From: Dehalococcoidia bacterium
Lineage (GTDB): Bacteria; Chloroflexota; Dehalococcoidia; Lucifugimonadales; UBA3495
Direction of reading: 5' to 3'
DNA length: 64,000 nt
NCBI GenBank assembly: GCA_965262595.1
Contig: OZ253548.1
Location: 1,371,740 to 1,435,739 of the forward strand
Position 1 is the first letter of the stretch, and every line of letters starts with the position of its first letter. Below are positions 3,732 through 28,160 of this stretch, in pieces. The notes beneath the pieces were generated by a model. The model worked only from the letters and a program-made list of their open reading frames with translations, searched no databases and was not told the origin of the DNA. The position numbers and the translations under genes are program-made.

Positions 3732-4364
3732 ATGGCCGAATCTGATTTCAGAACCTATTACGACTTCCGTTGACCCTTCGTATATAACGCTGCCATGTGG
3801 CTGGCGAAGGTACGAGCAACCACCGGACAGGAAATTGACGTTGACTGGCAGCCTTTCTCCCTGGAGCAGGTGAACAGCGACAAGGGCGAGGACTTCAAGT
3901 ATTGGGAACAGCCGGGCGCCCTCGACGGCTCCGACAATACCCTCCTGGCTCACCGGGCGGGACTAGCCGCGAAGCGTCAGGGCAAAGAGTCCTTCGAGGC
4001 ATTTTTCATTGCCCTGTTGAAGCTGCGCCACGAAGACCGAAAGAGCCTGACCGAACCGGCAGTCATCGACGAAGCGGTCAACAACTCCGGTATTGATATG
4101 GCTCGCTTCCGGGAAGACCTGGCTGATCCCGACCTGCTGCGGGAGATTGGGGAAAGCCACACCATCGCGGTGGAGGAGCACGGCGCATTCGGCGTACCTA
4201 CTTATGTGTTCCCCAACGGCGCAACTGCCTTTGTTAAGATGCACATTCCTCCCGATGAAGCGGCCGGCGAGATTTACGAGTCGCTGACCCGGGTAATTAC
4301 CGGCGCACAGCACGTAGGCGAGCTCAAGCGCCCGTCGCCCCCGTGGCCCCACGGCATCATCTAG
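3732..4364 (+). CDS. DsbA-like thioredoxin-fold protein with in-frame TGA (candidate Sec) at codon 14
   Basis: The track ORF 3795..4364 extends in frame to ATG 3732, which has AGGAGG 7 nt upstream. The N-terminus reads MAESDFRTYYDFR-[TGA 3771-3773]-PFVYNAAMW, so the TGA falls at the DsbA-family active-site Cys position. Confidence 0.6.
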
Positions 4365-4385
4365 GGGAGCGGGCCAGGATTTGCT

Positions 4386-5273
4386 TTGGCAATCTCAGAT
4401 CTGGAATCCACCCTCGGACTGCGTTTCAAGAACCAGGGCCTGTTGCAACAGGCCCTGGTTCACCGTTCGTATCTCAACGAACAAGGCGGCTCTACTGTAG
4501 ATTCCTACGAGCGTATGGAGTTTCTGGGTGACGCCGTCCTGGAATTAGTCATTTCCACCGAACTCTATCGGTGCTTGCCCCAAGTTGCCGAAGGGGAGTT
4601 GACCAAAGGCCGGTCTGCCCTGGTTTGCCGCCCCAGCCTGGCAAAAGTGGCGCGGAGGCTGTATCTGGGAGACTACCTGTCCCTGGGCAAAGGCGAGAAA
4701 AGCGCCGGAGGCCAGCAGCGGGAGTCTATCCTGGAAGAGGCTTTTGAGGCTGTGGTGGCGGCGGTGTACCTGGACCAGGGATTCGAGGCGGCCCGCCAGT
4801 TCATCTTGCGAGCGTTAGAGCCGGAACTGGCCGAGTATTGCCGATTGGGAATACCGCCGGAAAATCCCAAGTCGCAGCTTCAGGAAACGATCCAGGGCCA
4901 GGGACGTTCCACTCCCCACTATCGGGTAATTTCCATGGAGGGGCCCGCCCACCAGCCGGTATTCACCGTGGATGTTTTGGTGGATGACGAATTTCTGGGA
5001 CGGGGCTCCGGAACCAAGAAGACGGATGCCGAGCGCGCCGCCGCCCAGGAAGCTCTGGCCCGGTATGAAACCGACTCGGAAGTGACTCCGGAGTCTGCCG
5101 GGGTTGTCTCCCCAGTAACTCCGGCCAAAGTTAAGCCGACCGGCCCAAGCGCTTCCCAAAACGATTCGGCCCTTCCGCCCGCCCCGGAAATTGTTTTGGA
5201 CACTATAGCCCCAGGGGCCACAGAACCGGCTTCCGATTCCCAAGAACTTAAGGACAGTGTCAGCGCCGAATAA
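4386..5273 (+). CDS. rnc: ribonuclease III
   Basis: It has the signature ERMEFLGDAVLELV and a dsRBD, plus a Pro/Ser-rich C-terminal tail. Confidence 0.9.
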   Translation: MAISDLESTLGLRFKNQGLLQQALVHRSYLNEQGGSTVDSYERMEFLGDAVLELVISTELYRCLPQVAEGELTKGRSALVCRPSLAKVARRLYLGDYLSLGKGEKSAGGQQRESILEEAFEAVVAAVYLDQGFEAARQFILRALEPELAEYCRLGIPPENPKSQLQETIQGQGRSTPHYRVISMEGPAHQPVFTVDVLVDDEFLGRGSGTKKTDAERAAAQEALARYETDSEVTPESAGVVSPVTPAKVKPTGPSASQNDSALPPAPEIVLDTIAPGATEPASDSQELKDSVSAE

Positions 5274-6229
5274 TGCTCTCATTCTTCCAACGCAACCGCG
5301 AGGCCAACCAACAGCGCACTACCGAAGGAGTTAAACGCAGCCGCGAACGCTGGTTCGGGCGCATCCTCGGCATCCTCCGCTCCTCAAACCTGAATGACGA
5401 CGTTTGGGAGGAATTGGAGGAAATCCTGATTTCCGCCGACGTGGGCGTGGAAACATCGCTGCGCATCATCAAAGAGATGAAAGCCCAGGTGCTGGCGGAG
5501 CGCATTGATGACGCGGAACAGGCCTTTGCCCGGCTGAAACAGACGTTGACCCGAGACCTGGAGGCCGGAGATTCCCCGGAAACCTGGCTCGATTCGGCGG
5601 CTGAATCAACTCCCTACGTCATTCTGATGGTGGGAGTCAACGGCGTCGGCAAGACTACCAGCATCGCCAAGCTGGCCCACCACTTCACCAAGGAAGGCAA
5701 GCGGGTAATCCTGGGAGCGGCGGATACTTTTCGCGCCGCCGCCGAAGAACAGTTGGAAATCCTCGGCAATCGGGCGGGCGTAGAAGTGATTAGCCACCAA
5801 CCCGGCTCCGACCCCGGGGCGGTAGCCTACGACGCCTATCAGGCCAGTAAGGCGCGGGGCGCCGACGTATTGATTGTGGACACTGCGGGGCGTCTGCATA
5901 CCCGGTCCAACTTGATGGAAGAGCTGAAGAAGGTGCACCGGGTCATCAGCCGGCTGGATTCGGCGGCGCCCCACCAGGTTATCCTGACTCTGGACGCCAC
6001 CACCGGCCACAACGGTCTGGCCCAGGCCCAGGCCTTTAAGGAAGCGGTGGGCTGCACCGGCATATTTTTGGCTAAACTGGATGGCACGGCAAGAGGCGGC
6101 ATTGTTCTGGCCATCAAACAGGAACTGCAAGTCCCCATCCTCTTTATCGGAACCGGGGAATCCCTGGACGACATGGCGCCCTTTGACGCCGGGCAGTTTG
6201 TTGATTCCCTGCTTGCCCCCACAGCCTGA
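5273..6229 (+). CDS. ftsY: signal recognition particle receptor FtsY
   Basis: SRP-GTPase motifs [20 protein letters not shown] and KLDG are present. The start overlaps the rnc stop (TAATG). Confidence 0.9.
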
Positions 6230-6354
6230 GCGGTTCAAGCCGGCCTTTCGACTCCCCGCTAGTGCAACCCATGCCGCCAATTTCTCTTTTCTCTTCTTTC
6301 TGCTTCTTGCCTGGTTCTTGTCCCGCGCCTGCGGGCCGCTCCCCGAGATAGGTC

Positions 6355-8802
6355 GTGGTTGACCTGGTTGGCTGGCTGCTGGTTATAGAACTGATGGGCC
6401 TGGTGGCCTTCCCCTTAACCTTCGTCCTGTTTCGACGGCTGCCCGACCGGGGCTACACGGTGGCCAAGCCGTTGGCCTTGTTGCTGGCCGCCTACCTGCT
6501 CTGGCTGCTCGGTCTGACCCACCTGATTCCCAACGCTCCGGCGACCATCGTCGGCATCCTGATATTGGGCGCCGCGGTATCCGGCTGGCTATTCTATCGG
6601 AGCCGAAGGGAAATAGCGCAATTTGTAACCTCCCAATGGCGCATCCTGCTAACCGCCGAAGCAGTGTTCCTGGCCTTGTTCCTGGCCTGGGCTGGGCTGC
6701 TGTCCGAGTTTCCGGGTATCAACCACACCGAGCAGCCAATGGACTTTGCCTTTCTGAACGGCATCCTGCAGAGCCAATTCTTTCCTCCGGAAGACCCCTG
6801 GCTGGCCGGCCACCCCATCAGTTATTACTACTTCGGCCACTTTATGATGGCCCTGCCAATGCAGTTAGCCGGCATACCTTCCAATCTGGGCTACAATCTG
6901 GCCCTCTCGCTGGTCCCCGCCCTGGTTGGAATAGCGTCTTTTGGCCTGGCCTACAACCTGATACGCTTATCCGGGGGCAGCGGCAAGGCAGCAATTGGCT
7001 TTGGGTTGACCGCTCCGCTTTTGATAATGCTGATCGGCAATCTGGAAGGAGCAATGGAGTTCGTCCATTTGCGGGGTTGGGGCGGCGACGGCTTCTGGCA
7101 ATGGGTGGGCATCAAGGGACTGGAAGGCGGAGCAACCGGGGGTTCCGGCGTCTTCCCCGACGGCGGTTGGTGGTGGTGGCGGGCGACCCGGGTTATTGAC
7201 ACCCTGTCCGGCGGCCAAAGCCTGGACTACACCATTACCGAATTTCCATTTTTCAGCTTTATCCTGGGCGATTTGCACCCTCACATGATGAGCCTGCCCT
7301 TCCTGCTGCTGACTCTGTCGCTGGGACTGAACCTGTTTGTTTCGCCGGAACGGCCCGGGCTTGGTTGGCTGGTCCGGAATCCCTGGGCGGCAGGGGCCAT
7401 TGCCCTGTCCCTGGGAGCGCTGGCCTTTATCAACGCTTGGGACTTTCCGGTGTACGCCGCCCTATTCGGGGTGATGCTGCTGGTGAAATGGTACGGCTGC
7501 GAGTTGACCGGACCGGATAAATCCTTGACCTTGACCTCCAATTCCACCTTACTCCTAAACCGGGGAAAGGCCGCCCTGGGCAAAGCATTCCTCAATGTCG
7601 GACTGATGTTTACACCAATTCTGGCGGCGGCAATCTTATTATTTTTGCCCTTTTACCTGAGCCTGAGCAGCCAGGCAGCCGGTATTTTACCGACGCTGGC
7701 ATACCCAACCCGACCTTTTCTATTCTTTCTGGTAATGGGGCTGCCCTTCCTGCTGGGGCTGTCCTTCCTGCTTCGCCAACTGCCGGGACTGAAAAGGCCC
7801 GGCCCGGTGGACGGCGCAGCGATTCTGCTGGTCGGGATCGTTGTCCTGACTCCCCTGTTGCTGTGGGTGGCGCTGGCTCTTGCCTGGGGCAGCCTGACCA
7901 ACGGAATCGCTTCGACCTGGGGGCCGGTGGGCTGGCGAATTCTATTGACTCTGCCGGGATTGACCGTCACCGGCTTGGCCGGGTTCAGCGCGCTACAGCG
8001 AGCCGGAAGGGGCAATGACCCGGTCTTGGCTTTTCCCTTGCTGTTGCTGGCCACTGCCGCTTATCTGCTGGTGGGAGCGGAGCTGTTTTATCTGGCGGAC
8101 TTTTTTGGCAACCGGATGAATACCGTCTTCAAGGTCTATTACCAGGCTTGGTTGCTGCTGGGAATTGTGGGGAGTTTCGGGCTTTATTACTGGCATTCCC
8201 GCCGCCGCCATCCTGATTCCGGTCCCACTCGTACGTCGCGGTGGTCCTGGGGTCGGGTCGGCCACTGCGCCTGGGTAGGTGGCGCGGCCTTGCTGATCGC
8301 TGTGTCACTCTATTACCCGGTGGGGGCAGTCCTGGAACGTACCGGCTACTTCCAGCCGCGCCACACCCTGCGGGATAACACTCTGGACGGTCTGGCCTAC
8401 GTCCGGGAAAATGACCCGGCGGAGTACGCCGCTATCCTGTGGCTTCGGGACCGGGCGGCGCCCGCAAGGATAGTTGAGGCGGTGGGCGATGATTATTCAG
8501 ACTACAGCCGGGTATCCGCCGCTACCGGACGCCCCACGATACTGGGCTGGAAGGGGCACGAGCATCAATGGCGGGGAACCACCGCTCCCTTTGATGGACG
8601 CGAAGAGGACGTGGCCCGAATCTACGAAAGTGGTGACCCGGCAATGGTGCGGCAGTTACTGGAAAAGTATAATATCCGGTACGTGTACCTGGGTAGCCGC
8701 GAACGCGCCAAATACAATATAAACCGTTTGCCCGCATTGGACGGTTTACTGGAAATCGCTTTCGAGCAAGACGGCGTAATTATCTACGAGCTAGCCCACT
8801 AG
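6355..8802 (+). CDS. large polytopic membrane protein, Chlor_Arch_YYY (TIGR03662/DUF2298-like) family
   Basis: 815 aa and highly hydrophobic, with the diagnostic ISYYYFGH (YYYxG) motif. Confidence 0.8.
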   Translation: MVDLVGWLLVIELMGLVAFPLTFVLFRRLPDRGYTVAKPLALLLAAYLLWLLGLTHLIPNAPATIVGILILGAAVSGWLFYRSRREIAQFVTSQWRILLTAEAVFLALFLAWAGLLSEFPGINHTEQPMDFAFLNGILQSQFFPPEDPWLAGHPISYYYFGHFMMALPMQLAGIPSNLGYNLALSLVPALVGIASFGLAYNLIRLSGGSGKAAIGFGLTAPLLIMLIGNLEGAMEFVHLRGWGGDGFWQWVGIKGLEGGATGGSGVFPDGGWWWWRATRVIDTLSGGQSLDYTITEFPFFSFILGDLHPHMMSLPFLLLTLSLGLNLFVSPERPGLGWLVRNPWAAGAIALSLGALAFINAWDFPVYAALFGVMLLVKWYGCELTGPDKSLTLTSNSTLLLNRGKAALGKAFLNVGLMFTPILAAAILLFLPFYLSLSSQAAGILPTLAYPTRPFLFFLVMGLPFLLGLSFLLRQLPGLKRPGPVDGAAILLVGIVVLTPLLLWVALALAWGSLTNGIASTWGPVGWRILLTLPGLTVTGLAGFSALQRAGRGNDPVLAFPLLLLATAAYLLVGAELFYLADFFGNRMNTVFKVYYQAWLLLGIVGSFGLYYWHSRRRHPDSGPTRTSRWSWGRVGHCAWVGGAALLIAVSLYYPVGAVLERTGYFQPRHTLRDNTLDGLAYVRENDPAEYAAILWLRDRAAPARIVEAVGDDYSDYSRVSAATGRPTILGWKGHEHQWRGTTAPFDGREEDVARIYESGDPAMVRQLLEKYNIRYVYLGSRERAKYNINRLPALDGLLEIAFEQDGVIIYELAH

Positions 8803-8815
8803 AGAGCAACTGGAT

Positions 8816-11581
8816 TTGAGCCAAATTAACGACTCGACATTAGAAGGTAACCCAACCGAAAGCCACTTTCCCGGCCCGGCTTCCGGCCATTTGGATGGTC
8901 CGCCGCCTGGTTCATCTTCCGGCCTGTTGAATCGGTTGAAGGGAAGAGCGCTATTGGCTTTGCCGAGGCGGTCGTCCTGTGTGCGCTTCCTGACCTTTAG
9001 ATGGCGGCCCGGCTGGTACGAAGCCGGGTTCCTGGCCCTAATATTAGCCGCCCTGGGGCTGCGTCTGTGGGACCTGGAAAGTCGTACAATGCACTACGAC
9101 GAGGCAATCCACCTTTACTACTCCTGGCAGCTAGTCAACTTCGGGGAATACATCCATTCTCCCTGGATGCACGGGCCGTTCCAGATTGAGTTAGTCGCCC
9201 TGTTCCTGAAACTGCTGGGCGATACGGATTTCATTGCCCGGCTGGCCTATGTCCTGTTCGGGACGGCGCTGGTCGGGTTGCCTTACCTCCTGCGGAATGA
9301 CCTGGGCCGGGCCGGCGCCCTGCTAACCGGTGTTTTGCTCACCGTATCCCCGGCGCTGCTGTATTTCAGCCGGTTTGGCCGTAACGACATTATTATGGCC
9401 TTTCTGGCCGCGACCTTGTTCATCTTGATGTGGCGGTACTTTCGCGGCAGCAAGGACCGCTATCTCTACTTGGCCTCGGCGGTGTTGGCCCTTATCTTCG
9501 CCACCAAGGAAACCTCTTATATCATCACCGTGATATTTGGGTCGTTGGCCTTTTTACTAGCCCTGACCCAGCTTGCTCCCTGCCTGTTCAGGCACGCCCG
9601 CTTCGCCGACCTGACCGGGCCAGCCGGGTTCCTGGTCTTGCTGTTTACCCTGACATTGCCCCAATGGTCGGCGGCAATATCTCTGTCTCAAGACTGGCTG
9701 GGGCTGACGCTGGTGAACCTGGACGGGGTAACCAACGGCATTGTAGGCGCCCCCCATTGGGAAGCTCCCTTTGTGCAATTGCCGCTACTTAACGCTCCGA
9801 TGTGGCTTCACGGGTTGGCCTTGCTCCTGTTCGTCGGCGTCTTCTTCGTGTTTGCCCGGAGACACTCCGGGGCCTGGCAGCGCCGGTTGGTCCTGTTTTT
9901 AATTCCGGTGGCGATGGTGAACGCCACTGTCCTGCTGCTGACCCGTCCTTCCGGAGGAAACCTGGACCTGTATGTTGCCGGAGCCATCATCTTAATTTGC
10001 GTTGCCGCGTTCAGCTGCTTTCGCTTTTCCTGGAACCGGAGCTTCACGCTGCTGCTGGCCCCCTGCCTGCTGACCGCCCTCTATGCCGTCCTTTTCTTGC
10101 AGGTACTTAATGTTGATGCGCTGCTGTTGCGAGTACTGCCCGACGGGGTTGAAGTAGTCAGCAGCGGCAACGGCATTCCGTTGAACTTTATTGCGGCCGG
10201 AGGGACGCTGGCGATTACCGCCCTGGCCTCGGTATGGTTGGGCCTGAGCTGGAAAGGAGGGGTTTGGCTGGTCTGCGCCGGCATCTTTTATCTCATCTGG
10301 GTAACCCTTTACACCACCTTTTTTACCAACTTCGCCGGTTTATTCAGCGGCGTCTGGCAGGGTATGGGGTACTGGATCGCCCAACAGGAAGTGGCCCGAG
10401 GCAACCAACCCTGGTACTACTACTTTGTGGGGCTGTCGGTGTACGAGTCTCTGCCGTTTATATTCGGGATTGTCGGAGGGTATATTTCCCTGAAACGAGG
10501 CGACCTGATCGGCCTGGCCCTGGCCTTTTGGACCGGAATTAATCTCCTGGCCTACACCCTGGCCAGCGAAAAGATGCCCTGGCTGCTGGTAAATATCACC
10601 CTGCCTTTTATATTCCTGGCAGGCAAATTGCTCGGAGAATTGGTGGAGCAGGTTCCCTGGCGAAGCATCAGAGCGTGGAAACCGTTGCCGTTGCCGTTAT
10701 TACTGCTGGCGCTGCCTCCCCTGGCAGTTGTTGGCTGGGTTTGGCTGGTAATTTCCTACGTAAACCTGGAAACGGCAAGCTGGGAAGCGGCCTTCAACTC
10801 TCCCCAAGTCACTATTCAGATTGGAGTAGCCCTTCTTGCCGCGCTTCTGGCAGTGGCGTCGGCCTGGCTGGTACGGAGGAGCGGGTCCGGCGCCGGTATC
10901 GCGCTGACCGTTTTGGGGGGCGCCGCCCTGCTGCTGGGATTCACCTCGTTTACCGCCTATCGCGCGGTTTACACCTACGACGATTCCCATCCGGAAATCC
11001 TGATTTACGCGCAGGGCAGCGCCGACCTGCAAGAGACCTACCGGGAGCTGGATGCTCAGATATTAACCAGGGCCAAGTCGGACGGCCTGTCTGCTCCGGT
11101 GCAGGTGGACTACGACCTCTGGTATCCCTTTCAATGGTACGTGCGTCACTCGGAGCGGGACGGCCTGCTCCGTTTCGCCAACTTCAAGGACGCGCCGGAG
11201 CCAAGGCATTCCGGTTCCAATCCGGCGGAAGATGGAGCCGGAGATGGAGCCGGAGATGGAGCCGGAGATGGACCGGAGGCCGCCGCCTTGCTCTTGACCA
11301 ATGTTCACGGGGACCGGGATACGGGCCGATTGACCAACTACCGGCGGGACGGGCCAAAAAGCAACCTGCTGTGGTTTCCGGAGAGCTACCGGCGGCCAGG
11401 AGAGAACCGGCAATCGGAACCCTGGCGGGAAGAGTTGGCTAAAGACCTGGCCTTTTTCAGGGAGGCCGCCACCCAGCGGAAATACTGGCGCGGCGCCCTG
11501 AATTATCTGATTTACCGCCAACTGGATGCCGACTGGTTCAAATCGGAATACTACAGCTACTTGCCCCGGGAAACCAGGTGA
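8816..11581 (+). CDS. TIGR03663-type membrane protein with PMT/GT39-like N-terminus (putative glycosyltransferase)
   Basis: 921 aa and polytopic. The invariant DE and HGP motifs are present (MHYDEAIHL..., PWMHGPFQ). It lies directly after the YYY protein. The start codon is uncertain (TTG). Confidence 0.7.
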   Translation: MSQINDSTLEGNPTESHFPGPASGHLDGPPPGSSSGLLNRLKGRALLALPRRSSCVRFLTFRWRPGWYEAGFLALILAALGLRLWDLESRTMHYDEAIHLYYSWQLVNFGEYIHSPWMHGPFQIELVALFLKLLGDTDFIARLAYVLFGTALVGLPYLLRNDLGRAGALLTGVLLTVSPALLYFSRFGRNDIIMAFLAATLFILMWRYFRGSKDRYLYLASAVLALIFATKETSYIITVIFGSLAFLLALTQLAPCLFRHARFADLTGPAGFLVLLFTLTLPQWSAAISLSQDWLGLTLVNLDGVTNGIVGAPHWEAPFVQLPLLNAPMWLHGLALLLFVGVFFVFARRHSGAWQRRLVLFLIPVAMVNATVLLLTRPSGGNLDLYVAGAIILICVAAFSCFRFSWNRSFTLLLAPCLLTALYAVLFLQVLNVDALLLRVLPDGVEVVSSGNGIPLNFIAAGGTLAITALASVWLGLSWKGGVWLVCAGIFYLIWVTLYTTFFTNFAGLFSGVWQGMGYWIAQQEVARGNQPWYYYFVGLSVYESLPFIFGIVGGYISLKRGDLIGLALAFWTGINLLAYTLASEKMPWLLVNITLPFIFLAGKLLGELVEQVPWRSIRAWKPLPLPLLLLALPPLAVVGWVWLVISYVNLETASWEAAFNSPQVTIQIGVALLAALLAVASAWLVRRSGSGAGIALTVLGGAALLLGFTSFTAYRAVYTYDDSHPEILIYAQGSADLQETYRELDAQILTRAKSDGLSAPVQVDYDLWYPFQWYVRHSERDGLLRFANFKDAPEPRHSGSNPAEDGAGDGAGDGAGDGPEAAALLLTNVHGDRDTGRLTNYRRDGPKSNLLWFPESYRRPGENRQSEPWREELAKDLAFFREAATQRKYWRGALNYLIYRQLDADWFKSEYYSYLPRETR

Positions 11582-14213: not shown

Positions 14214-14319
14214 CCCGTCCGGAAGCTACCCCCACCGCCAATTTCAGGTTGCGATTAAAGGGCCGGTTCAACGTCGGAAAGGCTTTGAGTCTTTCAAAAG
14301 TCACAGCTTGGGAATATTT

Positions 14320-17488: not shown

Positions 17489-17860
17489 TCAGCCGGCGTC
17501 AATTCCCGCATCGGTCAAGGCTTGACCGATGACGTTCAAGTTAGCGCCGATAAGCAATTTGCCGCCCAACCGGGTCACCGGACGCCGGATTAAGCGCGGT
17601 TCCTGAAGCATCAGTCTCAACAATTCGGCGTCGGGTAGTTCCTGCCCGGCCAAGCCCAACTTCTTCAGGCTGGGACTACGCCAGGCAAACAGCTCAGACA
17701 GCGGCGCCAGCGTGGCAAGGTGGTTAATTTCCGTCTCGCTGAAGGGTTCCTTAAAGAAATCCCGTTCCTCCAATTCCAGTCCCTTTTGTAAGAGCAACTC
17801 CCTTACCTTGCGGCAGGAAGATCAACGGGGCCACCAGAAAAACTCTGCCTTTTCGCTCAT
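17489..17860 (-). CDS. ArsC/Spx-family thioredoxin-fold protein with in-frame TGA (candidate Sec) at codon 13
   Basis: The track ORF 17489..17797 starts at an internal TTG. The same frame continues to ATG 17860, which follows GAGGTG. The N-terminus reads MSEKAEFFWWPR-[TGA 17824..17822]-SSCRKVRELLLQKG, which matches the family CxxC(R/K)KA motif. Confidence 0.65.
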
Positions 17861-18031: not shown

Positions 18032-20830
18032 TCAGGAGAGCCGATCCTCCGGGTTGCGGGCCTTTTCCTGCAATTCATAGAGCTTGTTGATTGCTTCCAG
18101 CGGGGTCAAGTTGGGAATGTCCAAGTTCATTACCGCATCGGTTAGAGGCTGGTCCGGCTGGAACAGGGGCATTTGCCGCGCCGCCGACTCGGATTTGCTA
18201 CTACGTTTAGCCGGGCTTTTGCGGTTAGAACCGGGCTTTTCCAGCTCCTCCAGGACTTCCCAGGCCCGATTGACCACCGCCCGGGGCAACCCGGCCAGTT
18301 GCGCCACGTGGACGCCATAGCTGCGGTCGGCGCCGCCGGCTACAATGCGGTGCAGGAATACTACCCGTCCCTCCTCCTCAACCACCGCGACGCTGAAGTT
18401 GCGCACGCCGGGCAGGGTGTGGGCCAGTTCGGTCAGTTCATGGTAGTGAGTAGCGAACAGGGTCTTGCAGCCGAGGCGAGGGTCGTTGTGCAGATGTTCA
18501 ATGACCGATCGGGCGATGGAAAGACCGTCGTAGGTACTGGTGCCCCGTCCGATCTCATCCAGAATTACCAGGGACCGGGGCGTGGCCTGATTCAGGATGG
18601 CGGCGGTTTCCACCATCTCCACCATAAAGGTGGACTGACCGGTGGTCAAATCGTCCTGCAAGCCCACCCGGGTAAATATCCGGTCAACCAGGCCAATCGT
18701 GGCTTCAGCCGCCGGAACAAAGCTGCCGATTTGGGCCATCAGGACGATTATGGCCGCCTGGCGGATATAGGTGGACTTGCCCGCCATGTTGGGGCCGGTA
18801 AGGACAACGATACGAGCGTCTTCATTGGAAAGCTGCACATCGTTGGGAACATAAGCCCCTGACCCCAGGGTCTGCTCCACCACTGGGTGACGACCGTCCT
18901 TGATACTGACGGCATTGTCCAGATTCAGCCGGGGGCGGACGTATCCATGAACCGCTGCCACCTCGGCCAGGGCGGAAAACACGTCCAGCGCGGCGATGCC
19001 GGCGGCCAGGCGGCCAATGGACTCGGCATAGTTTCCAATCTGGCTGCACACTTGCCGGAACAACGACCGTTCCATTTCCTGAATTCGTTCCCGGGCATTT
19101 AGTACCAGGGATTCATACTCTTTGAGTTCGGGCACGATATAGCGCTCGCCGTTAGCCAGGGTCTGGCGGCGGGTGTAATCATCGGGCACCTGGCCCAGGT
19201 TGGCCTTGCTGATTTCAATATAGTAACCAAATACCTGGTTGTACCCCACTCGCAGGTTGCGGATGCCGGTGCGTTCCCGCTCCCGCGCCTCCAGACCGGC
19301 GATGAAACCCCGGGCGTCGCGGGAGGCGATTTTCAGTTCGTCCAGTTCCGGGGAGAAGCCTTCCCGGATGATGTTGCCCTCGCCGAGGCTGCCCGCCGGG
19401 TCCGGGGCGATAGACTCTTCAATAAGGGCTGCCGCCTCCGGCACCGGGGATAACTGCCGGAATAGCCAGGCCAACTGGTCAGCGCCTTCTCCTTCCAGGG
19501 TAGCGGCGAGGCGGCCAGAGGCGGTTATACCGGTCTTGAGCGCGATTAACTCCCGGGGAGCCACCGTCCCGGATTGCACCCGGCTCAGGACTCGCTCCAG
19601 GTCGGCGACATTGGTCAGAGCGGTACGAGCATCGCCGCGCCGAAAGGCGTCCTTAAAGAAATGCTCCACCGCGTCCAGGCGGCGTTCCAGCTCCTCCAAT
19701 TGCAATAACGGCTGTCCCATCCAACGGCGCAGGAGCCGACCGCCCATCGGGGTGCGGGTTAAATCCAGGGCAGACAGCAGGGACAATTTCCGGTTTTCCC
19801 AACGCCCGGCCTGGAACAACTCCAGGTTACGTCGGGTCTGGGGGTCCAGAACCATATAATCGCCGCTGGAATAGACACTGAGGGCCGCCAGGCGTGGTTT
19901 GACCGTCTTGTAAGTCTGGCCCAGATAGTCCACGACAGCGCCGGCAGCCCGCACCGCCAGGGGCAGGTTTTCACAGCCAAAGGATTCCAGAGAGCGTATC
20001 TCGTACTGAGCCAGCAGGACGGCCCGGGCCAAGTCCAGGTCAAAGGTTGCCGGGTTCAATTGTGTCAGAGGATAGGGAGTAAAAGAAAAGTCGTTGGAGC
20101 CTGGTCCACGCTGGTCCCCACCCGTTTTTGACTCGACCGAAGCGGCCCCCATCACGGCGGCTCCCTTCACGCTGGCTCCCATAGCAGCGGCTCCCATCAC
20201 GGCGGCTCCCATCGTAGCGGCCCCCATCGTAGCGGCCCGGTTCTCCTCGCCGACCCAGCTTGGCAGGGAATCGGCGGCGGGAACCAGGATTTCCGCCGGG
20301 GCGATGCGTTCCAGTTCCGGCAGCAGGCGTTCGGAAGGAAGTTGGGTGGCGGCAAACTCGCCGGTTGAGATGTCCACGTAGGCCAGCCCCACCGCCGGAC
20401 CGTCTTCAACCACCGCGGCCAGATAGTTGTTGGAGTTCTGATCCAGCAGAGCGGATTCCAGAACCGTGCCGGGGGTAACCACCCGAACGACGTCGCGCTC
20501 CACCAGGCCGCGGGACGTCGCCGGGTCGGTGAGCTGTTCGCAGATTGCCACCTTGTGGCCCTTCTTGATAAGGCGGGCCAGGTAGGGTTCCAGAGAGTGG
20601 GCCGGGACGCCGGCCATCGGGATTTTCAGCCCCTTGCCCATGTTTCGGGACGTCAGGGTTATCTCCAGTTCCCGGGCCGCCAGGCGCGCATCATCGTCGA
20701 AGGTTTCGTAAAAGTCGCCCAGCCGGAACAGCACCAGGGCGTCCGGGTAGGCGTGTTTTATTTTAAGGTATTGGCGGCGTACCGGCGTCAATGTTACCCC
20801 GCTGGCCGGGTCAGAAAGACTCAAACTCAT
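18032..20830 (-). CDS. mutS: DNA mismatch repair protein MutS
   Basis: 932 aa with Walker A GPNMAGKSTYIRQ and the N-terminal mismatch-binding motif GDFYETF. Confidence 0.95.
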   Translation of the reverse strand: MSLSLSDPASGVTLTPVRRQYLKIKHAYPDALVLFRLGDFYETFDDDARLAARELEITLTSRNMGKGLKIPMAGVPAHSLEPYLARLIKKGHKVAICEQLTDPATSRGLVERDVVRVVTPGTVLESALLDQNSNNYLAAVVEDGPAVGLAYVDISTGEFAATQLPSERLLPELERIAPAEILVPAADSLPSWVGEENRAATMGAATMGAAVMGAAAMGASVKGAAVMGAASVESKTGGDQRGPGSNDFSFTPYPLTQLNPATFDLDLARAVLLAQYEIRSLESFGCENLPLAVRAAGAVVDYLGQTYKTVKPRLAALSVYSSGDYMVLDPQTRRNLELFQAGRWENRKLSLLSALDLTRTPMGGRLLRRWMGQPLLQLEELERRLDAVEHFFKDAFRRGDARTALTNVADLERVLSRVQSGTVAPRELIALKTGITASGRLAATLEGEGADQLAWLFRQLSPVPEAAALIEESIAPDPAGSLGEGNIIREGFSPELDELKIASRDARGFIAGLEARERERTGIRNLRVGYNQVFGYYIEISKANLGQVPDDYTRRQTLANGERYIVPELKEYESLVLNARERIQEMERSLFRQVCSQIGNYAESIGRLAAGIAALDVFSALAEVAAVHGYVRPRLNLDNAVSIKDGRHPVVEQTLGSGAYVPNDVQLSNEDARIVVLTGPNMAGKSTYIRQAAIIVLMAQIGSFVPAAEATIGLVDRIFTRVGLQDDLTTGQSTFMVEMVETAAILNQATPRSLVILDEIGRGTSTYDGLSIARSVIEHLHNDPRLGCKTLFATHYHELTELAHTLPGVRNFSVAVVEEEGRVVFLHRIVAGGADRSYGVHVAQLAGLPRAVVNRAWEVLEELEKPGSNRKSPAKRSSKSESAARQMPLFQPDQPLTDAVMNLDIPNLTPLEAINKLYELQEKARNPEDRLS
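20142..20237. repeat. 15-nt tandem repeat, about 6.4 copies, in frame inside mutS
   Basis: The units are GCGGC(C/T)CCCAT(C/A)(A/G)(C/T)(G/A). They encode ATMGA-ATMGA-AVMGA-AAMGA-SVKGA-AVMGA. Confidence 0.9.
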
Positions 20831-20956
20831 CCATCCGGGTTTAGCGCCATTTTATCCTATGCAAGAAGAGATAACCAAGGGCTGCTGAAACCGGGTCACG
20901 ACCTTTGGAATCGTGACCCGGTCAATCAGGTCAGCCGGCAATAGAGGGAGCTGGCG

Positions 20957-21742: not shown

Positions 21743-21923
21743 ACCTCATTCGATTTGGAGCGGGCGCCCGGCCGTCGGGCGTAAGGGTTTCAATTATTAT
21801 TGACAATCCATAAATATTGCCAGCCGCCGATAAATGGCGCGGGTCCGGAGTTTAACGATATCCATTATAAGCTGCGAGCGATCAATTCCGCAGCGCAGCA
21901 CGTCGCCAATTCCAATAATGATT

Positions 21924-24824
21924 TCAGCCCGCGGCCGCCCTGGCCGCTTCATCGGACTTAACTACCCGGGCCGCAAGGATATCCAGCCCAGGCACTTTGG
22001 ACATAGGATCCGGGTCCTCCGATGCTTGAAGGTCAACCGCTAGTTGGCCGAAAAGAGTCACCACCGAAACCACGCCGGCGGGTATTTCGGAGTCCACCCT
22101 GGCCAGACCGGCCAAACGGCCTCGTCGGGTCTGCACTTCCACCATATCACCTTCGGAGATAGACCAGGAGTCGGCGTCCGACGGGTTCAGCTCTACCAGT
22201 TCATCACGGACGATCCGGTTGCGGCTAACGTTGCCGCTGCTGCTGCCGCTAGTCTCGGTTACCACGTTGATTTCCCGGTCTTCCTGGAACAGCACCCGAC
22301 CCGGAACAAACCAGGCCGGATATTCTTCATCCGGCGGCGCCTGGGAAGAGCGGAACCGGGGAACGATTAGTTCGGCCCGGCCCGACGGGAAACCGTCAAG
22401 ATATAAGACCGCGGTACCGACCCTGGACGTTGTCGAGCCGGGCCACTGAATGCCCCGGTACTCTTTACTGGCATAGAGGAGCTGGGTGGGCTTGGGACTT
22501 TCCAGACCGCTGCGCAGTACCAAAGCGGATTCCGACTCCAGCCTCCCGTAGGATAGGCCGGCGTAGTTGGGCACAACCTGGACAATTTCGTCCATCACCG
22601 CTTCGGCGGACGGGTAATCAAAACCCGGGGCGCCAAGCCTTTTGGCCAATTCGATAAGGAACCACTGTTCGGACTTGGCCTCACCTTTTCCAGGGGCTAA
22701 AACGGGCCGGATTCTCTGGATGCGCCGCTCCAAATTGGTATAAGTGCCATCCTTTTCGGCAAAGGTCGAACGGGGCAGCACCACGTCGGCCAATTGGGCC
22801 GGAGCGCTGAGAAAAGAATCCATCACCACCAGGAAATCTAGGTTTCGGAGGGCGTCCAAGCCCTCTCCCAACCGGCGGTTAGCGAGATTGGAACTGTCGC
22901 CAATTACCATCATCGCCTTGACCGATCCATCCCGGGCGGCGGCTAGTGTTTCAGCGATGCCTCGACCCGGCGCGGTGGGCAGCGAGCATTCCCAACGCTC
23001 CTCCAGTTCGCGGCAGGTCTGGCTGTTCCGTCGGGCGTCGGCTTCGGAGAGGAAGCCCGGTCCAACTCCGGGCAGGCGGTTGGGGATACAAGCCATGTCC
23101 CAGGAACCCTGTTCGTTGGCGCCCTGACGCATCGGGTAGATACCGGCGCCGGGTTTGCCCACGTTTCCGGTCAGCAAAACCAGGTTAACCAGGGCATTGA
23201 CACAGTCCCGTTGCAAATCTTCAGGGACGTTATCCAGAGCGTAGCATAGAGCAGCGCAATCCGCCTCTCCGAACAGTCGAGCGGCTTCGGCAATCCGTTC
23301 CTGAGAGACCTGGGTAATTGCCGCAACTTCACCCAGGTCCAGGTTGTTCAAATAATAGTAGAGTGTAGTGGGGGACTCACAATTGCGCTCAATCCACTCC
23401 GTATCTACCAGGCCTTGGTCTAGCAGCTCCCGCAGGATGCCACCCAGAACCAATAGCTCGGTGCCGGGGGCGGGCCGGAGCCAGCAGCGGGTATAACGGG
23501 TCAGTTCTACTTCCCGGGGGTCGATAACAACCAGATTTGCGCCGTTCTGCACTGCCCGCTTAATCGGCACGCCCACCACGTTGTTGGCCTCGGTGAGGTT
23601 GGAATTAAAAACCAGGATGCAACCGGCTTGCTCCAAGTCCCAGATAGGATTGGTCGCCGCCCCGTAACCCAGGGCTTGCTCCAGGGCAATGGTTAGTTCC
23701 GGCTGAACGTTAGAGGTGAGGTCCACGTTATTGGAGTTCATCACTGCCCGGGCAAATTTCTGCGCCAGGTAGAGTTCTTCGTTGGTGCCGTCGGGCGAGG
23801 CCAGCAAGGCGAAGGAATCGCCTTTATACCGGGAAAGCTGCCCGGCAACAAAGTCCAGCGCTTCCCCCCACGTAGCCTCGACCAGGTTTCCATTGCGGCG
23901 AATCATCGGTTGCCGCAACCGGCTCCGGCTGTTGATGAACTCCAGGCCAAACTTACCCTTAAAGCAAGCCTGCCCCCGATTGGCCGGAGAATTATGCTCC
24001 GGTACGACCCGGATAAGCTCGCCGCGGCCGTTTAGTTCCAGATTTAGCTGGCAGCCGACCGGGCAGTGGGGACAGACGGTACGTTCTACCGTCCGCGCCT
24101 TTTCCCACTTATGTTCCCGTTCCACCAGCGCGCCCACCGGACAAACATCGATGCAGGAGCCGCAAAACTCGCAGCCCGATTCCAGCAGAGAGGAGCCAAA
24201 AGAGGTGCCGACCAAGGCTTTACCGGACCGCTCGGTGAAGGTAATTGCGTTATCGCCGCGAATTTCCTCGCAGGCCCGTACACAGCGTCCACAGGTGATG
24301 CACAAGTTATAGTCCCGGTCATAGAAAGGGTCGCTGACTTCCAGGGGAATCTGCTTGTAGTTGTAATTGAGGGCCGATTCCAGCTCCATCCCCAGGTAGC
24401 GCACCGTGTCCTTGAATTCGCAGCGTTCGTTCTTGGGGCAGGTGACGCAGCGGTCATTAACCGACACATGGCGGAGACAAATATCGTTGGGGCCGCAAAT
24501 ATCAACGCGGTGGCAGGTGAGACAGCCGCTGGGATGCTCGGCGATGAGCATTTCCATTACTGAGCGACGCAGTTCATTTACTTCATGAGTCTCGCTGCGG
24601 ATGCTCATACCGTCCTGAACCGGCAGGGTGCAGGCGGCGGGATAGCCCCGGCCGCCTTCCACCGAAACAACGCACATTCGGCAGGCGGCAAAGGGTTTCA
24701 TGCCGGGGTGATAGCACAAGTAGGGGATATATATGCCGGCGTCAACCGCCGCTTCCAGGACCATTTTTCCGGGCTGAGTTTTTATCTCGATTCCGTCAAT
24801 GGCGATGGTGATATCGTCGGGCAT
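21924..24824 (-). CDS. NuoG / formate-dehydrogenase-alpha-like Fe-S molybdopterin-fold subunit
   Basis: The N-terminus has a 2Fe-2S domain, several 4Fe-4S Cys clusters and the CPHCPVGC motif, followed by a molybdopterin oxidoreductase fold. No Cys or Sec was seen at the FdhF ligand position. Confidence 0.8.
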   Translation of the reverse strand: MPDDITIAIDGIEIKTQPGKMVLEAAVDAGIYIPYLCYHPGMKPFAACRMCVVSVEGGRGYPAACTLPVQDGMSIRSETHEVNELRRSVMEMLIAEHPSGCLTCHRVDICGPNDICLRHVSVNDRCVTCPKNERCEFKDTVRYLGMELESALNYNYKQIPLEVSDPFYDRDYNLCITCGRCVRACEEIRGDNAITFTERSGKALVGTSFGSSLLESGCEFCGSCIDVCPVGALVEREHKWEKARTVERTVCPHCPVGCQLNLELNGRGELIRVVPEHNSPANRGQACFKGKFGLEFINSRSRLRQPMIRRNGNLVEATWGEALDFVAGQLSRYKGDSFALLASPDGTNEELYLAQKFARAVMNSNNVDLTSNVQPELTIALEQALGYGAATNPIWDLEQAGCILVFNSNLTEANNVVGVPIKRAVQNGANLVVIDPREVELTRYTRCWLRPAPGTELLVLGGILRELLDQGLVDTEWIERNCESPTTLYYYLNNLDLGEVAAITQVSQERIAEAARLFGEADCAALCYALDNVPEDLQRDCVNALVNLVLLTGNVGKPGAGIYPMRQGANEQGSWDMACIPNRLPGVGPGFLSEADARRNSQTCRELEERWECSLPTAPGRGIAETLAAARDGSVKAMMVIGDSSNLANRRLGEGLDALRNLDFLVVMDSFLSAPAQLADVVLPRSTFAEKDGTYTNLERRIQRIRPVLAPGKGEAKSEQWFLIELAKRLGAPGFDYPSAEAVMDEIVQVVPNYAGLSYGRLESESALVLRSGLESPKPTQLLYASKEYRGIQWPGSTTSRVGTAVLYLDGFPSGRAELIVPRFRSSQAPPDEEYPAWFVPGRVLFQEDREINVVTETSGSSSGNVSRNRIVRDELVELNPSDADSWSISEGDMVEVQTRRGRLAGLARVDSEIPAGVVSVVTLFGQLAVDLQASEDPDPMSKVPGLDILAARVVKSDEAARAAAG

Positions 24825-24878
24825 TCCATCCTCTCCGGCCCGGCCTTGAAACCGGGCTAGGTAACGGGCGTTGTTAGT

Positions 24879-26642
24879 TTATCTCCGGCTGAGTTGGGGC
24901 GAAAAATAAGGCGCACAGCAGCGTCCGGTAGGGCAAAGTCGCTCGTTAATGTGAGTATCGAACTCGTCGGCAAAATAACGCAAGGCCGAGGCTACCGGAT
25001 TAAAACCCAACTGCCCGTGACCGCACAGCGAACCGGCCTGCATATTTTCGCCAATGGTCCGCATCAAAGCCAGGTCTTCCGAGTTCCCCTCCAGACGGGT
25101 AATACGTTCCAGCACTTCCAGCAGATGGCTCATACCCATTCGGCAGGGGAAACACTTGCCGCAGGACTCATACTGGCAAAAGGCGATGAGTACCCGGGTC
25201 AAGTCCACCACGCAGGTGTCCTCGTCGGCGGCAATGATTCCACCGGAACCAAGGATGGCTCCGGCGTTGCGAAACACTTCAAAATCCAGGGCCAAATCGG
25301 TGGCTTCGGCGCTAAGGACGCCGCCCAGCGGCCCGCCGGTTTGGATAAACTTGAGCTTCCGCCCATTGGGAATGCCCCCGGCAATTTCGTAAAGCACATC
25401 CTGCAGATTGATGCCCATCGGCAGTTCCACCATGCCGGTATAGTTCAAAGCGCCGGTGAGACAGAGAATCACCGTGCCGGTACTGCGTTCGTGGCCGATG
25501 CCGGCGAACCATTCGCCGCCGCGAGCGATAATCTCCGGAACGTAGGCCAGGGTCTTGACGTTATTTACGTTGGTTGGCTTGCCGAACACCCCGACCTGAG
25601 CCGGAAAGGGCGGACGGTACCGGGGCATGGCGCGGCTACCCTCGATGGCCTCCATGAGGGCGGTTTCCTCGCCGGAAACGTAAGAATCCCCGGTCAATGC
25701 AATTTCCAGGTCGAAGCTGAACCCGGAACCGAGGATATTTTCGCCCAGCAAGCCCAACTCGTAAGCCTGGGCGATGGCGGCGCGGGTCCGCTCGATGGGG
25801 CCGTCGTGCCCGTGGCGAATAAATATATACCCGTAATGAGCGCCGGTGGCGTAGCCGGCCAGAATGATGCCCTCCACCACCGTATGCGGATCGCTTTCCA
25901 GGATACCTTTATCGTTAAACGCGCCCGGGTCGCCTTCCTCGCAATTGCACAGGACATACTTGACCGGAGCATTTGACCCGGCCAGGAACCGCCACTTGGT
26001 CCCAGTGGCAAAGGCGGCGCCGCCCCGGCCCCGCAGACCGGAAACGTTGACTTGCTCCAGGACGTCGGCGGCGGTCATTTCGGTCAGGGCTTGATTCAGG
26101 GCATGATAGCCGCCGTTAGCCACATACTGGAACAGGTCCAGCGGGTCAATATGTCCGGCATTGCGCAGGGCGATACGCTGTTCCCTGGCCCGCATGGGGT
26201 GACGGTTCAAGTCAGGTAAGCCTGCGGCATGGGACGGGGCGACATTCGGGGAACCACTCTCCGGGTCGCCGTCTTTTTCGTCGTCACAACCCAGGTAACC
26301 CAGGGCCAGGTCTTCCAGCGGTATTCCATGTAATACGTGGCGAACGACAATCTCCTCGGCTCTCTCCGGGGTAACATTGCCATAGAAGACGCGAGACTGG
26401 CCGGGCACCAGCACATCCACCAGGGGTTCGGCAAAACAGAGGCCCAGGCACCCAACCCGGCTTACCGCAGCGGTCGCGCCGTGCCGCTTCAGGGACTCTT
26501 CGATGGCCCTAACTACTTCATCGGCCCCGGCGGCTTGGCCGCACAAAGCTGTGCCCACCCGAATCCAGGTATGGCTGCCTTTAGTCAACGACTGCCAGCG
26601 TTGCCGGGCCTGAGCCTGAATGTCCTCAAAGGTTGGGGCCAT
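24879..26642 (-). CDS. NuoF-like NADH-binding FMN/4Fe-4S subunit with N-terminal thioredoxin-like 2Fe-2S domain
   Basis: The motifs GGAAFATGTKW, CNCEEGDPGAF and ESCGKCFPCRMG are present. Confidence 0.85.
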   Translation of the reverse strand: MAPTFEDIQAQARQRWQSLTKGSHTWIRVGTALCGQAAGADEVVRAIEESLKRHGATAAVSRVGCLGLCFAEPLVDVLVPGQSRVFYGNVTPERAEEIVVRHVLHGIPLEDLALGYLGCDDEKDGDPESGSPNVAPSHAAGLPDLNRHPMRAREQRIALRNAGHIDPLDLFQYVANGGYHALNQALTEMTAADVLEQVNVSGLRGRGGAAFATGTKWRFLAGSNAPVKYVLCNCEEGDPGAFNDKGILESDPHTVVEGIILAGYATGAHYGYIFIRHGHDGPIERTRAAIAQAYELGLLGENILGSGFSFDLEIALTGDSYVSGEETALMEAIEGSRAMPRYRPPFPAQVGVFGKPTNVNNVKTLAYVPEIIARGGEWFAGIGHERSTGTVILCLTGALNYTGMVELPMGINLQDVLYEIAGGIPNGRKLKFIQTGGPLGGVLSAEATDLALDFEVFRNAGAILGSGGIIAADEDTCVVDLTRVLIAFCQYESCGKCFPCRMGMSHLLEVLERITRLEGNSEDLALMRTIGENMQAGSLCGHGQLGFNPVASALRYFADEFDTHINERLCPTGRCCAPYFSPQLSRR

Positions 26643-26760
26643 ACTAATTTTTACTCAAGGGATTCGCCGGATAGCGGCAACTTCCGGGGAGCGCCCGGCC
26701 TACGGCCTTCGGAACGAAGATTTTCTCAAAACGAGGCATTGCCCCCATTCCTGCTCCACC

Positions 26761-27249
26761 CTATCCTTGCCAGGCGTCGGCCAGGGACTTGCTCAAAGTC
26801 TTTATTAGATTGTCCCGAGCCCGCTCCGGAGACAGGCGGCCCATTAGTCGATGGTCAACGGACATTACCGGCGCTTGGGCGCAAGCCCCCAGGCAGGTGT
26901 TGTAGCGCACCGATAGCTTGCCGTCCGGCGTGTCTCCCTCCGCCGCCAGTCCGGCAGCCTCCAGAACGGCGGCAATAACCGGCATCGCCCCGACCAAGTG
27001 GCAAGACGGGCCCCAACAAACCTCGACATGATGCTCGCAGGGTGGCACAGTACGAAAGTTGGGGTAAAAAGAAACCACCGCCCAAACATCGTTAACGGTG
27101 GCCCGGTTAAACCCGGCTACCGCTTGCACGGCTTCTTTGGGGATATAGCCCAACTCGTCTTCAACGGCGAGCAAGGAGGAGAGGATAGTAACGGTAGGTT
27201 GAGGTTGATTGTGGACGGCCTTCCTGATTCGTTGCTTCAACCCATCCAT
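26761..27249 (-). CDS. NuoE-like 2Fe-2S ferredoxin subunit
   Basis: The Cys pattern is VCWGPSCHL...CLGACAQAP. Confidence 0.85.
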   Translation of the reverse strand: MDGLKQRIRKAVHNQPQPTVTILSSLLAVEDELGYIPKEAVQAVAGFNRATVNDVWAVVSFYPNFRTVPPCEHHVEVCWGPSCHLVGAMPVIAAVLEAAGLAAEGDTPDGKLSVRYNTCLGACAQAPVMSVDHRLMGRLSPERARDNLIKTLSKSLADAWQG

Positions 27250-27401
27250 CGTTTGGGCTCCTTGGCCCCATCTACCTCGGGAGCGAGATTCGCCCAGCGC
27301 CCTTAAAGTAAAGTTCGTGAATAAGGGTAGTTAGTGATTTTTGTAACAATCTCTTCTGTAAATGTTACCACAGGGAAGCGAGCAGGTTCAACCTAAAACG
27401 A

Positions 27402-27420
27402 ACCCGGAACCGGGTCTTTT
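27402..27420 (-). terminator. possible short intrinsic terminator after the dsbA-like gene
   Basis: The minus strand reads ACCCGG-uu-CCGGGU followed by UCGUUUU. The stem is short. Confidence 0.35.
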
Positions 27421-27509
27421 GACGCGACGGTTCCGGGCCAGGCTCCGGTTCAGCGATATAACGGACAGGTATCGGCTTGAGAAATTCCGGGATGACCGCG
27501 TCTCGCCGA

Positions 27510-28160
27510 CTACTCGCCCTTCAAATACTGATTCATCGCCGACTTGAAAATATCGTAGGGTTGGGCGCCGGTGAAGAGCAGGTTGCCTACCACAAAAGTT
27601 GGTATTCCCCGGATGCCGTACTGCAGCGCCTCCTGGTATTGCTCCATCACCTTGGAGGAATAATGACGGCTTTGCAGCCGGTCCATCAGCTCGTCAGTGT
27701 CCAGGCCCACCGACCCGGCCACCTCTTCAATCGCCGCTAGTTGCCCCAAGTCCTTCCCGTCCTCCCAATAGGCCTTATAGGCGGCGTGGTGAAACTCCAT
27801 AAACTTGCCCTGCTGCTGGGCATACTCGGTGGCTTCCAGGGCATAGCCGGTATTGGGAGTAACCCGGGGCGGACGCATAATCAGGTTAGCATCGCGCACC
27901 TGAGAGCGAATTGGCTCGCTCAACTCGTCCTCGGTTTCTCCGGAACGGGCTTGACGCTGCAAGCCCTCTTTGGGGGTATCCGGACGGAGCAAGTAAGCCC
28001 GCCCCTCCACGGCAATGTTATAGTCCTGGCCCAACTTGTCGACCCGCTCCAGGCCGACGTAGCACCAGGGTCAAATATAATCGTACCAAACGATAACCCT
28101 TACCGGATCTGAGCCGTTCAGGTCGGAGCTGTTATTTGGTTGCGATACCGATTCAGTCAT
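27510..28160 (-). CDS. FrnE/DsbA-like dithiol oxidoreductase with in-frame TGA (candidate Sec) at codon 30: U-P-W-C motif
   Basis: The track ORF 27510..28034 starts at an internal TTG. The frame continues to ATG 28160, with AGGAGG 6 nt upstream. The sequence reads ...VRVIVWYDYI-[TGA 28073..28071]-PWCYVGLERV, against the family consensus CPWCY. Confidence 0.75.

Follow-up and report, generated by a model that had tools for sequence, protein, structure and literature searches.

DsbA-like and ArsC-like selenoproteins were already reported by Zhang et al. 2006 (PMC1794560), and the GOS analysis lists among such families 'DsbA 1' (UxxC), 'DsbA 3' (UxxV) and 'Arsenate reductase 2' (UxxC), where U denotes selenocysteine (Sec) (PMC2398784). 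The GOS/Zhang DsbA-like and ArsC-like families are repeated in a 2026 review in Applied and Environmental Microbiology, whose 'DsbA-like protein form 1' is of the GOS 'DsbA 1' type (PMC13188914). As for the lineage, the 2026 catalogue BSepDB, in which a species is counted only if it has two or more of SelA, SelB and SelD, ranks two metagenome-assembled genomes (MAGs) of Dehalococcoidia among the ten richest bacteria, with 49 selenoprotein genes in UBA1141 and 46 in 10f4566d (PMC13326102). The DNA analysed here, a 64-kb stretch of contig OZ253548.1 from a Dehalococcoidia (Chloroflexota) bacterium that is referred to as the window, holds three TGA-interrupted open reading frames (ORFs) which, on comparative grounds, are very probably intact selenoprotein genes. 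Candidate 1 (3732-4364, + strand) would encode a DsbA-like/Rv2466c-like protein with the motif UPFV (UxxV), candidate 2 (17489-17860, - strand) an ArsC/Spx-family protein with USSC (UxxC) and candidate 3 (27510-28160, - strand) a DsbA/FrnE-like protein with UPWC (UxxC). Compared by motif and domain, the three match the GOS table, candidate 1 corresponding to 'DsbA 3' (pfam01323, UxxV), candidate 2 to 'Arsenate reductase 2' (cd03032 ArsC_Spx, UxxC) and candidate 3 to 'DsbA 1' (pfam01323, UxxC), so they are further members of selenoprotein families known since 2006-2008. The initial annotation of the window had stated correctly that DsbA-like and ArsC-like selenoproteins were described before (PMC1794560, PMC2398784); the novelty that it saw in their density and lineage does not hold up, since the Sec-richness of Dehalococcoidia is already recorded in BSepDB (PMC13326102).

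The three sites share a common arrangement, which is just as the initial annotation had it: a Shine-Dalgarno (SD) sequence and an ATG are followed by 12-29 sense codons, a TGA and the remainder of a thioredoxin-fold domain. When the three products are compared with solved homologues, the Sec codon falls in each case on the nucleophilic Cys that opens the redox motif. Codon usage was scored on both sides of every TGA in the window, in all six frames, and only three TGAs in the 64 kb proved to sit between two coding segments, the first of them opened by a start codon, and not to be antisense to a longer gene. These are the same three sites, and no fourth selenoprotein candidate was detected in the window. 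A TGA at 2076 (- strand) is merely the upstream stop before a 71-aa Cys-rich ORF with its ATG at 2031, the segments upstream of the TGAs at 21748 and 63796 are non-coding, and the remaining matches of the scan lie antisense to real genes. Two further genes were considered and rejected as selenoproteins, the CMD/AhpD-like gene at 57203-57751, which contains neither Cys nor Sec, and an Fdh-like subunit with Gln-Pro in place of Sec/Cys-His.

TGA is otherwise a normal stop codon in the window, which has a G+C content of 57.7%, since it ends 14 of the 50 long non-overlapping ORFs (TAA and TAG end 18 each), otsA and mutS among them. The earlier argument from otsA against TGA being a general sense codon can therefore be extended to 13 other long ORFs. 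A code in which TGA is read throughout as Trp or Gly (translation tables 4 and 25) is scarcely credible with these terminations, with only three TGAs in 64 kb flanked by coding sequence on both sides, and with homologues in which the sense codons at the site are for Cys only, never TGG or GGN. A Trp does appear at the Sec position of candidate 1 in the database protein P0148, an ENA cluster of 147 member sequences, as such a code would predict. The underlying DNA, however, reads TGA (locus L121, 352-354), and the L121 locus translated under table 11 does not yield the recorded protein. The Trp is evidently an annotation artefact, produced by a table in which TGA is Trp, that masks a selenoprotein.

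Candidate 1 would encode 210 amino acids. Its SD sequence, AGGAGG, is at 3720-3725 and its ATG at 3732, from where 13 sense codons (MAESDFRTYYDFR) lead to the TGA at 3771-3773, followed by 196 codons and a TAG at 4362-4364; the product would thus begin MAESDFRTYYDFR-U-PFVYNAAMW. With Sec read as Cys, as was done in the Pfam scoring of all full-length products, it passes DSBA (PF01323) with 61.8 bits against a gathering threshold of 25.6, and its 37.7 bits for the Rv2466c-like family (PF22234) are also above the Pfam gathering score. The best solved relative is PDB 7dk9, a single-Cys DSBA-domain protein that has its Cys, in a CPYAW motif as against UPFV, where candidate 1 has the TGA; 7dka is the Cys-to-Ser variant of the same protein. 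The PF22234 domain is common to candidate 1 and the Rv2466c-like reductases. Candidate 1 has no resolving Cys. Rv2466c itself carries CPWC and not a one-Cys motif.

TGA stands at the aligned position in each of the 30 metagenome loci, and tblastn alignments cross it in frame (YYDFR*PFVYNAA, the asterisk standing for the TGA). Full-length proteins with Cys at this position, about 70% identical to candidate 1, read YDFRCPFVYNA (P0128, P0131, P0142, P0156 and others). P0156 is encoded with a TGT codon at a locus, L120, that is syntenic with candidate 1. The gene order around candidate 1, which is conserved among relatives, is OGG, ADH, CCA-adding enzyme, candidate 1, RNase III, FtsY and DUF2298. 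While GOS 'DsbA 3' had 5 sequences, the family of candidate 1 comprises at least 30 loci from marine and other metagenomes together with syntenic Cys orthologues.

Candidate 2 would be a protein of 123 amino acids. A GAGGTG sequence precedes the ATG at 17860, 12 codons (MSEKAEFFWWPR) precede the TGA at 17824-17822, and 110 codons follow it as far as a terminal TGA at 17491-17489, giving the N-terminus MSEKAEFFWWPR-U-SSCRKVREL. The product passes Pfam ArsC (PF03960; 59.8 bits, gathering threshold 24). Its best solved relative is Spx (E 1e-11), and U overlies Cys10 of the C10xxC13 motif of Spx. In an alignment to an unverified sequence of R773 ArsC, U falls on Cys12; in this same alignment one Arg lies on Arg94 of the ArsC arginine triad, Arg60 is replaced by Ala, and the alignment stops before Arg107. 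The score is below the cut-offs of TIGR00014 for glutaredoxin-dependent ArsC (42.8 against 106 bits), TIGR01617 for Spx/MgsR (53.3 against 75.05 bits) and NF041106 for ArsC_rel_Se_1 (27.2 against 85 bits). The last of these, an arsenate reductase-like family, is a sister subfamily of candidate 2 rather than the same family. With scores below all of the ArsC, Spx and ArsC_rel_Se_1 cut-offs and only part of the arginine triad, it is doubtful that candidate 2 reduces arsenate, and a role as a thiol/selenol redox protein or sensor seems more likely than one as an arsenate reductase.

Among 82 loci the codon aligned with the TGA of candidate 2 is TGA in 74, TGT in six and TGC in two. The peptide is kept on both sides of the TGA across loci (FYWWPR*SSCRKVRELLLQ), and the tblastn alignment runs through it (FYWWPR*SSCRK). 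A search restricted to one genome per GTDB species gave 80 loci, the best of which is 85% identical. The hosts of the homologues are nearly all MAGs named "Dehalococcoidia bacterium" or SAR202, with a minority of Smithella/Syntrophaceae deltaproteobacteria; candidate 2 orthologues are thus shared between the Dehalococcoidia and the Sec-rich Syntrophaceae/Smithella.

Candidate 3 would encode 216 amino acids. AGGAGG is followed by the ATG at 28160, 29 codons, the TGA at 28073-28071, 186 codons and a TAG at 27512-27510, and the sequence around U reads VRVIVWYDYI-U-PWCYVGLERV. It passes Pfam DSBA (PF01323) with 120.6 bits against a gathering threshold of 25.6. U aligns with the first Cys of the CPWC motif in FrnE (PDB 5cnw/5cp1). 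Candidate 3 is about 30% similar to the Deinococcus radiodurans protein (5cnw; E 4e-16), which has CPWC where candidate 3 has UPWC and a C-terminal extension that is absent from the 216-aa product. With 58.5 bits it falls far below the cut-off of 190 bits for NF041057 (Rcas_1661_fam_Se), a selenolipoprotein family that is a sister subfamily and not the same one. No signal peptide was seen in candidate 3 by eye, without the use of a predictor. The codon is TGA in nine of nine orthologous loci, where VWYDYI*PWCY is conserved, and the tblastn alignment continues through it (VWYDYI*PWCYVGLERV).

The gene order around candidates 2 and 3, likewise conserved, is otsA, otsB, (rpiB), a HAD hydrolase, candidate 3, NuoE, NuoF, an Fdh-like gene, an FNR-like gene, MutS and candidate 2. 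The HAD-hydrolase gene is directly upstream of candidate 3 in every locus, while the linkage to the NuoEF/Fdh-like genes is seen in some loci only. This conserved neighbour in Dehalococcoidia is a feature of candidate 3 that distinguishes it from GOS 'DsbA 1' and FrnE.

Gene callers predict precisely the short ORFs that would be expected if the three TGAs were real stops, with pseudogenes at these sites or truncated proteins started from internal Met/Leu codons at 3795, 17797 and 28034. That explanation is nevertheless highly improbable. The short products would be without the catalytic residue and the first β-strand, strong SD sites stand before the upstream ATGs, in-frame conservation of the 12-29 codons 5' of the TGA can be followed in orthologues with as little as about 45% identity, and tens of species keep the same nonsense codon while the sequence to either side of it is under purifying selection. 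With the same codon being TGA in 74 of 82, 30 of 30 and nine of nine loci, and with in-frame conservation to either side of it, its presence is beyond chance.

The short database entries instead bear out the initial suggestion that standard gene calling truncates such genes. For candidate 3, the best 120 database homologues (67-98% identity) are all of 150-183 aa and cover 73-83% of the protein; for candidate 1, most of the database homologues are of 189-197 aa. In public collections nearly all homologues of the three genes are stored in an N-terminally truncated form that is missing the catalytic residue, and thiol/selenol redox enzymes are therefore under-counted in functional or metabolic inference for Dehalococcoidia/SAR202-type MAGs. 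The three genes are thus of use chiefly as a clear case for correcting annotation. The subfamilies of candidates 2 and 3 also escape the existing selenoprotein hidden Markov models of NCBIfam.

The bacterial selenocysteine insertion sequence (SECIS) folds into a stem-loop immediately after the UGA, and its apical loop carries a conserved G(U). A candidate hairpin is found about 15-35 nt 3' of each of the three TGAs, with the apical loop about 22-26 nt downstream, and in candidates 1 and 2 the G(U) is present at column 27(-28) of the loop. Since single-sequence folding energies were not significant, covariation, measured on gap-free, codon-aligned alignments, was used as the evidence for SECIS elements.

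The hairpin of candidate 1 lies at 3788-3806 (+ strand), where columns 18-24 pair with columns 29-36 around an apical AUGU loop whose G27 and U28 never vary; a weaker stem outside it extends over 3777-3816. Over 26 distinct sequences 97.3% of the cells in the hairpin are paired, and the whole structure is 83.8% paired as against 40-59% in controls with slid partners. The pair 18-36 is UA in 18 sequences and CG in seven, and the pair 21-33 is CG, UG, AU or GC. In the Cys orthologue at L120 the stem is absent, GCC AUG UGG CUG GCG having become GCA ACG GUA CUG GCG, and the Met-Trp residues that the stem encodes are lost along with it.

For candidate 2 the hairpin, GUAAGGG-AGUUG-CUCUUAC, is at 17788-17806 (- strand) and is formed by columns 19-25 with 31-37. 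G27 of the apical loop is invariant and U28 nearly so. Among 70 distinct sequences 93.9% of its cells are paired, and the whole structure reaches 79.2% compared with 36-54% in the slid-partner controls. Three pairs show double compensatory changes, U-A (29) with C-G (27), G-C (32) with A-U (26) and G-C (58) with A-U (11). No counterpart of this hairpin is seen in the eight Cys homologues. A lower stem (columns 10-14 with 42-46) was rejected as part of the element, only 58.6% of it being paired.

The hairpin of candidate 3, at 28025-28069 (- strand), has an inner stem of columns 16-24 with 28-36 (28038-28058) and an outer stem of columns 5-10 with 44-49. The inner stem is 94.4% paired over six distinct sequences, and the whole structure is 90.0% paired against 24-46% with slid partners. 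There is a compensatory change in the inner stem from C18-G34 to G-C, which comes at the price of an Asp-to-His substitution, and another in the outer stem from C6-G48 to U-A.

The proposal of Sec recoding therefore has independent support of three kinds for each gene: the pairing of Sec with Cys forms, coding conservation on both sides of the TGA, and a covarying hairpin which, for candidates 1 and 2, the examined Cys forms do not have. Some observations weigh against it. The covariation in candidate 3 is thin, coming from six distinct sequences and a single compensatory change in each stem. Folded one sequence at a time, the regions 3' of the three TGAs did not significantly outperform shuffled sequences (z = -0.4 to -1.7). 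Rfam gave no match at gathering score over the whole window, SECIS or otherwise, and at E ≤ 10 no SECIS family at the three sites, where there were chance matches only. Within the 64-kb window, selA, selB, selD and tRNA-Sec were not seen. The null result with Rfam is, however, no argument against a SECIS, as the hairpins lie inside coding sequence and differ among the three gene families.

With regard to the Sec machinery, the window has no tRNA of any kind, and no sel gene was found among its Pfam-screened ORFs or among the gene calls of syntenic loci. The gene at 59780, the only translational GTPase of the window, is EF-G, scoring 879 bits for this family and 24.8 bits for selB (cut-off 242). 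Both parts of the earlier statement, that none of selA, selB, selC and selD is visible here and that the gene at 59780 is not SelB-like, are thereby upheld. The sequence available from related genomes reaches up to 10 kb to the left and right of the genes and amounts to 1.75 Mb. Across these loci tblastn with E. coli SelA, SelB and SelD gave no match, a weak test with unverified queries, and ARAGORN found a tRNA-SeC in L037 only, a deltaproteobacterial MAG. This tRNA-SeC (anticodon TCA) is at 1123-1220 (- strand), about 9 kb from the candidate 2 orthologue.

Some anaerobes are reported to have tRNA-Sec-like tRNAs that are charged with Cys. Were such a tRNA to insert cysteine at the three UGAs through SelB and a SECIS, the comparative signature would be identical, as it would for any SelB-dependent recoding, and the window is without a tRNA. 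It is still very unlikely that cysteine is what is inserted. The three genes agree with catalogued selenoproteins in family, motif and lineage, and a UGA read as Cys would bring no gain over TGT or TGC, yet TGA is retained in 74 of the 82 candidate 2 loci; related Dehalococcoidia are, moreover, scored as positive for the Sec pathway in BSepDB.

If the three genes are selenoprotein genes, each hairpin would act as a bacterial SECIS that recruits SelB-GTP and Sec-tRNA(Sec) to the ribosome, by the mechanism established for bacteria, and the UGA would then be read as selenocysteine instead of as a stop. From the fold and the motif, Sec would take the place of the nucleophilic Cys on the N-terminal side of the redox motif in a thioredoxin fold. 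Candidate 3, with UPWC, may behave as a cytoplasmic DsbA of the FrnE type, alternating between the selenol/thiol form and an intramolecular selenenylsulfide, and candidate 2, with USSC in an ArsC/Spx fold, may cycle between selenol/thiol and selenenylsulfide in the same manner. Candidate 1, with UPFV, would be a one-Sec reductase or isomerase of the kind represented by 7dk9 and the Rv2466c-type proteins, and a substrate or a low-molecular-weight thiol would be its partner in a mixed selenenylsulfide. With no resolving Cys, it probably does form such mixed selenenylsulfides with a partner thiol; that candidate 1 is a mechanistically distinct selenol-dependent reductase seems unlikely.

Through homologues of candidates 1 and 3, contigs with 98-99% identity to the window (L002, L122) and several complete Dehalococcoidia chromosomes were reached. 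Contigs at this level of identity include ena:ERZ26167216:ctg495296_18.02x_l (1.30 Mb) and ena:ERZ25766727:ctg361255_7x_l (0.61 Mb), and ena:ERZ21742408:ctg6208c (2.64 Mb) and OZ240220.1 are complete relatives. UBA1141, which belongs to the same class as the window organism and to a different species, is represented by locus L017 and carries a candidate 2 orthologue, 60% identical, with TGA. In the five Dehalococcoidia MAGs of L010, L011, L013, L017 and L020 a UGSC-family selenoprotein gene (GD-U-GSCSSCS) is found upstream of the candidate 2 orthologue at a distance of about 9.5-10 kb, on the + strand at about 178-745 in L010 and at about 9-576 in L017; the copy in UBA1141 (L017) is about 9.7 kb upstream and scores 150.7 bits for NF041046 against a cut-off of 125. 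At about 11037-12000 in L036 a BtuF-like substrate-binding protein has a candidate CxxU motif (C-A-E-U). The cross-locus TGA screen from which these came was crude and returned mostly true stops of near-identical genomes, among which the UGSC cluster and the BtuF-like gene looked real. Together with the BSepDB counts for the class, these genes lend the Sec machinery indirect support. To the eye, a "GGC-TGA" case in L079 and L082 resembles the ordinary terminus of a MoaD/ThiS-like sulfur carrier.

If about 49 selenoprotein genes are spread over a genome of 3-4 Mb, related complete chromosomes measuring 2.0-5.1 Mb, 0.8-1.05 would be expected per 64 kb and the Poisson probability of three or more is about 0.045-0.09, so that a few such windows are expected per genome and three selenoprotein genes in 64 kb are not exceptional. 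The three genes do not form a functional cluster, candidate 1 being 14 kb away from candidate 2 and having unrelated neighbours; each is an ordinary member of a large selenoproteome. That the selenoproteome of the window organism is substantially above the 46-49 genes of other Dehalococcoidia is improbable; three genes per 64 kb, if extrapolated, would pass the bacterial record of 63. With the families known from 2006-2008 and the Sec-richness of the class catalogued in 2026, the biological picture is unchanged and what is added is detail. The one-Sec UxxV DsbA-like family, known from 5 GOS sequences, appears to be abundant in marine Dehalococcoidia/SAR202-type populations, and the covarying hairpins would be clean, family-specific examples of SECIS elements from Chloroflexota that could improve bacterial SECIS models, 12.6% of the BSepDB entries being without a canonical SECIS (PMC13326102).

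Several other features of the window were noted. The Fdh-like product beside NuoE and NuoF is a NuoG/Fdh-alpha-like subunit of 966 aa at 21924-24824 (- strand), in which Gln-Pro (NVDLTSNVQPELT) is found where formate dehydrogenases carry Sec/Cys-His (NVDHCARL[U/C]H). As the catalytic Sec/Cys residue is lacking, it is probably not a formate dehydrogenase. In mutS (- strand) a 15-nt in-frame tandem repeat at 20141-20238, with 6.4 copies and 79% matches, encodes ATMGAATMGAAVMGAAAMGASVKGAAVMGAA; the MutS of the window has 932 aa, compared with 879-925 aa in relatives.

A Dam-type (D12) methyltransferase and an EcoRV-family endonuclease are encoded at 41322-43201 (- strand), between apparent genes for the E1-alpha (43323-44405) and E1-beta (40143-41186) subunits of a 2-oxoacid dehydrogenase. 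In the relative L116, the synteny of which is the basis for identifying the E1 genes, these two adjoin, so the pair would be a restriction-modification cassette inserted inside an operon. Three further pairs beyond D12/EcoRV, an unusually high restriction-modification-like load for 64 kb, are an N6/N4 methylase fused to HNH (32571-33944), a ThaI-like endonuclease with a methylase (37993-39628, identified through the gene calls at the syntenic position of L002) and, at 52311-53812, a methylase beside a His-Me finger/Endonuclease VII protein. An IS240-type transposase is at 34061-35164.

Between the CMD/AhpD-like gene and a 103-aa ORF, about 650 nt (approximately 57850-58520) are without a convincing ORF or an Rfam match; a 200-aa ORF at 57863-58465 has no Pfam match and a non-coding appearance. 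The 71-aa Cys-rich ORF at 1819-2031 (- strand) is zinc-ribbon-like (CxxC...CxxC...C...CxxC) and has no Pfam match, and a 71-aa gene is called at the matching position in L122. At 47332-50050 (- strand) there are two neighbouring genes whose products, of 471 and 411 aa, have a CAP (cysteine-rich secretory protein) domain; a 12-nt tandem repeat lies in the first gene, at 48098-48165.

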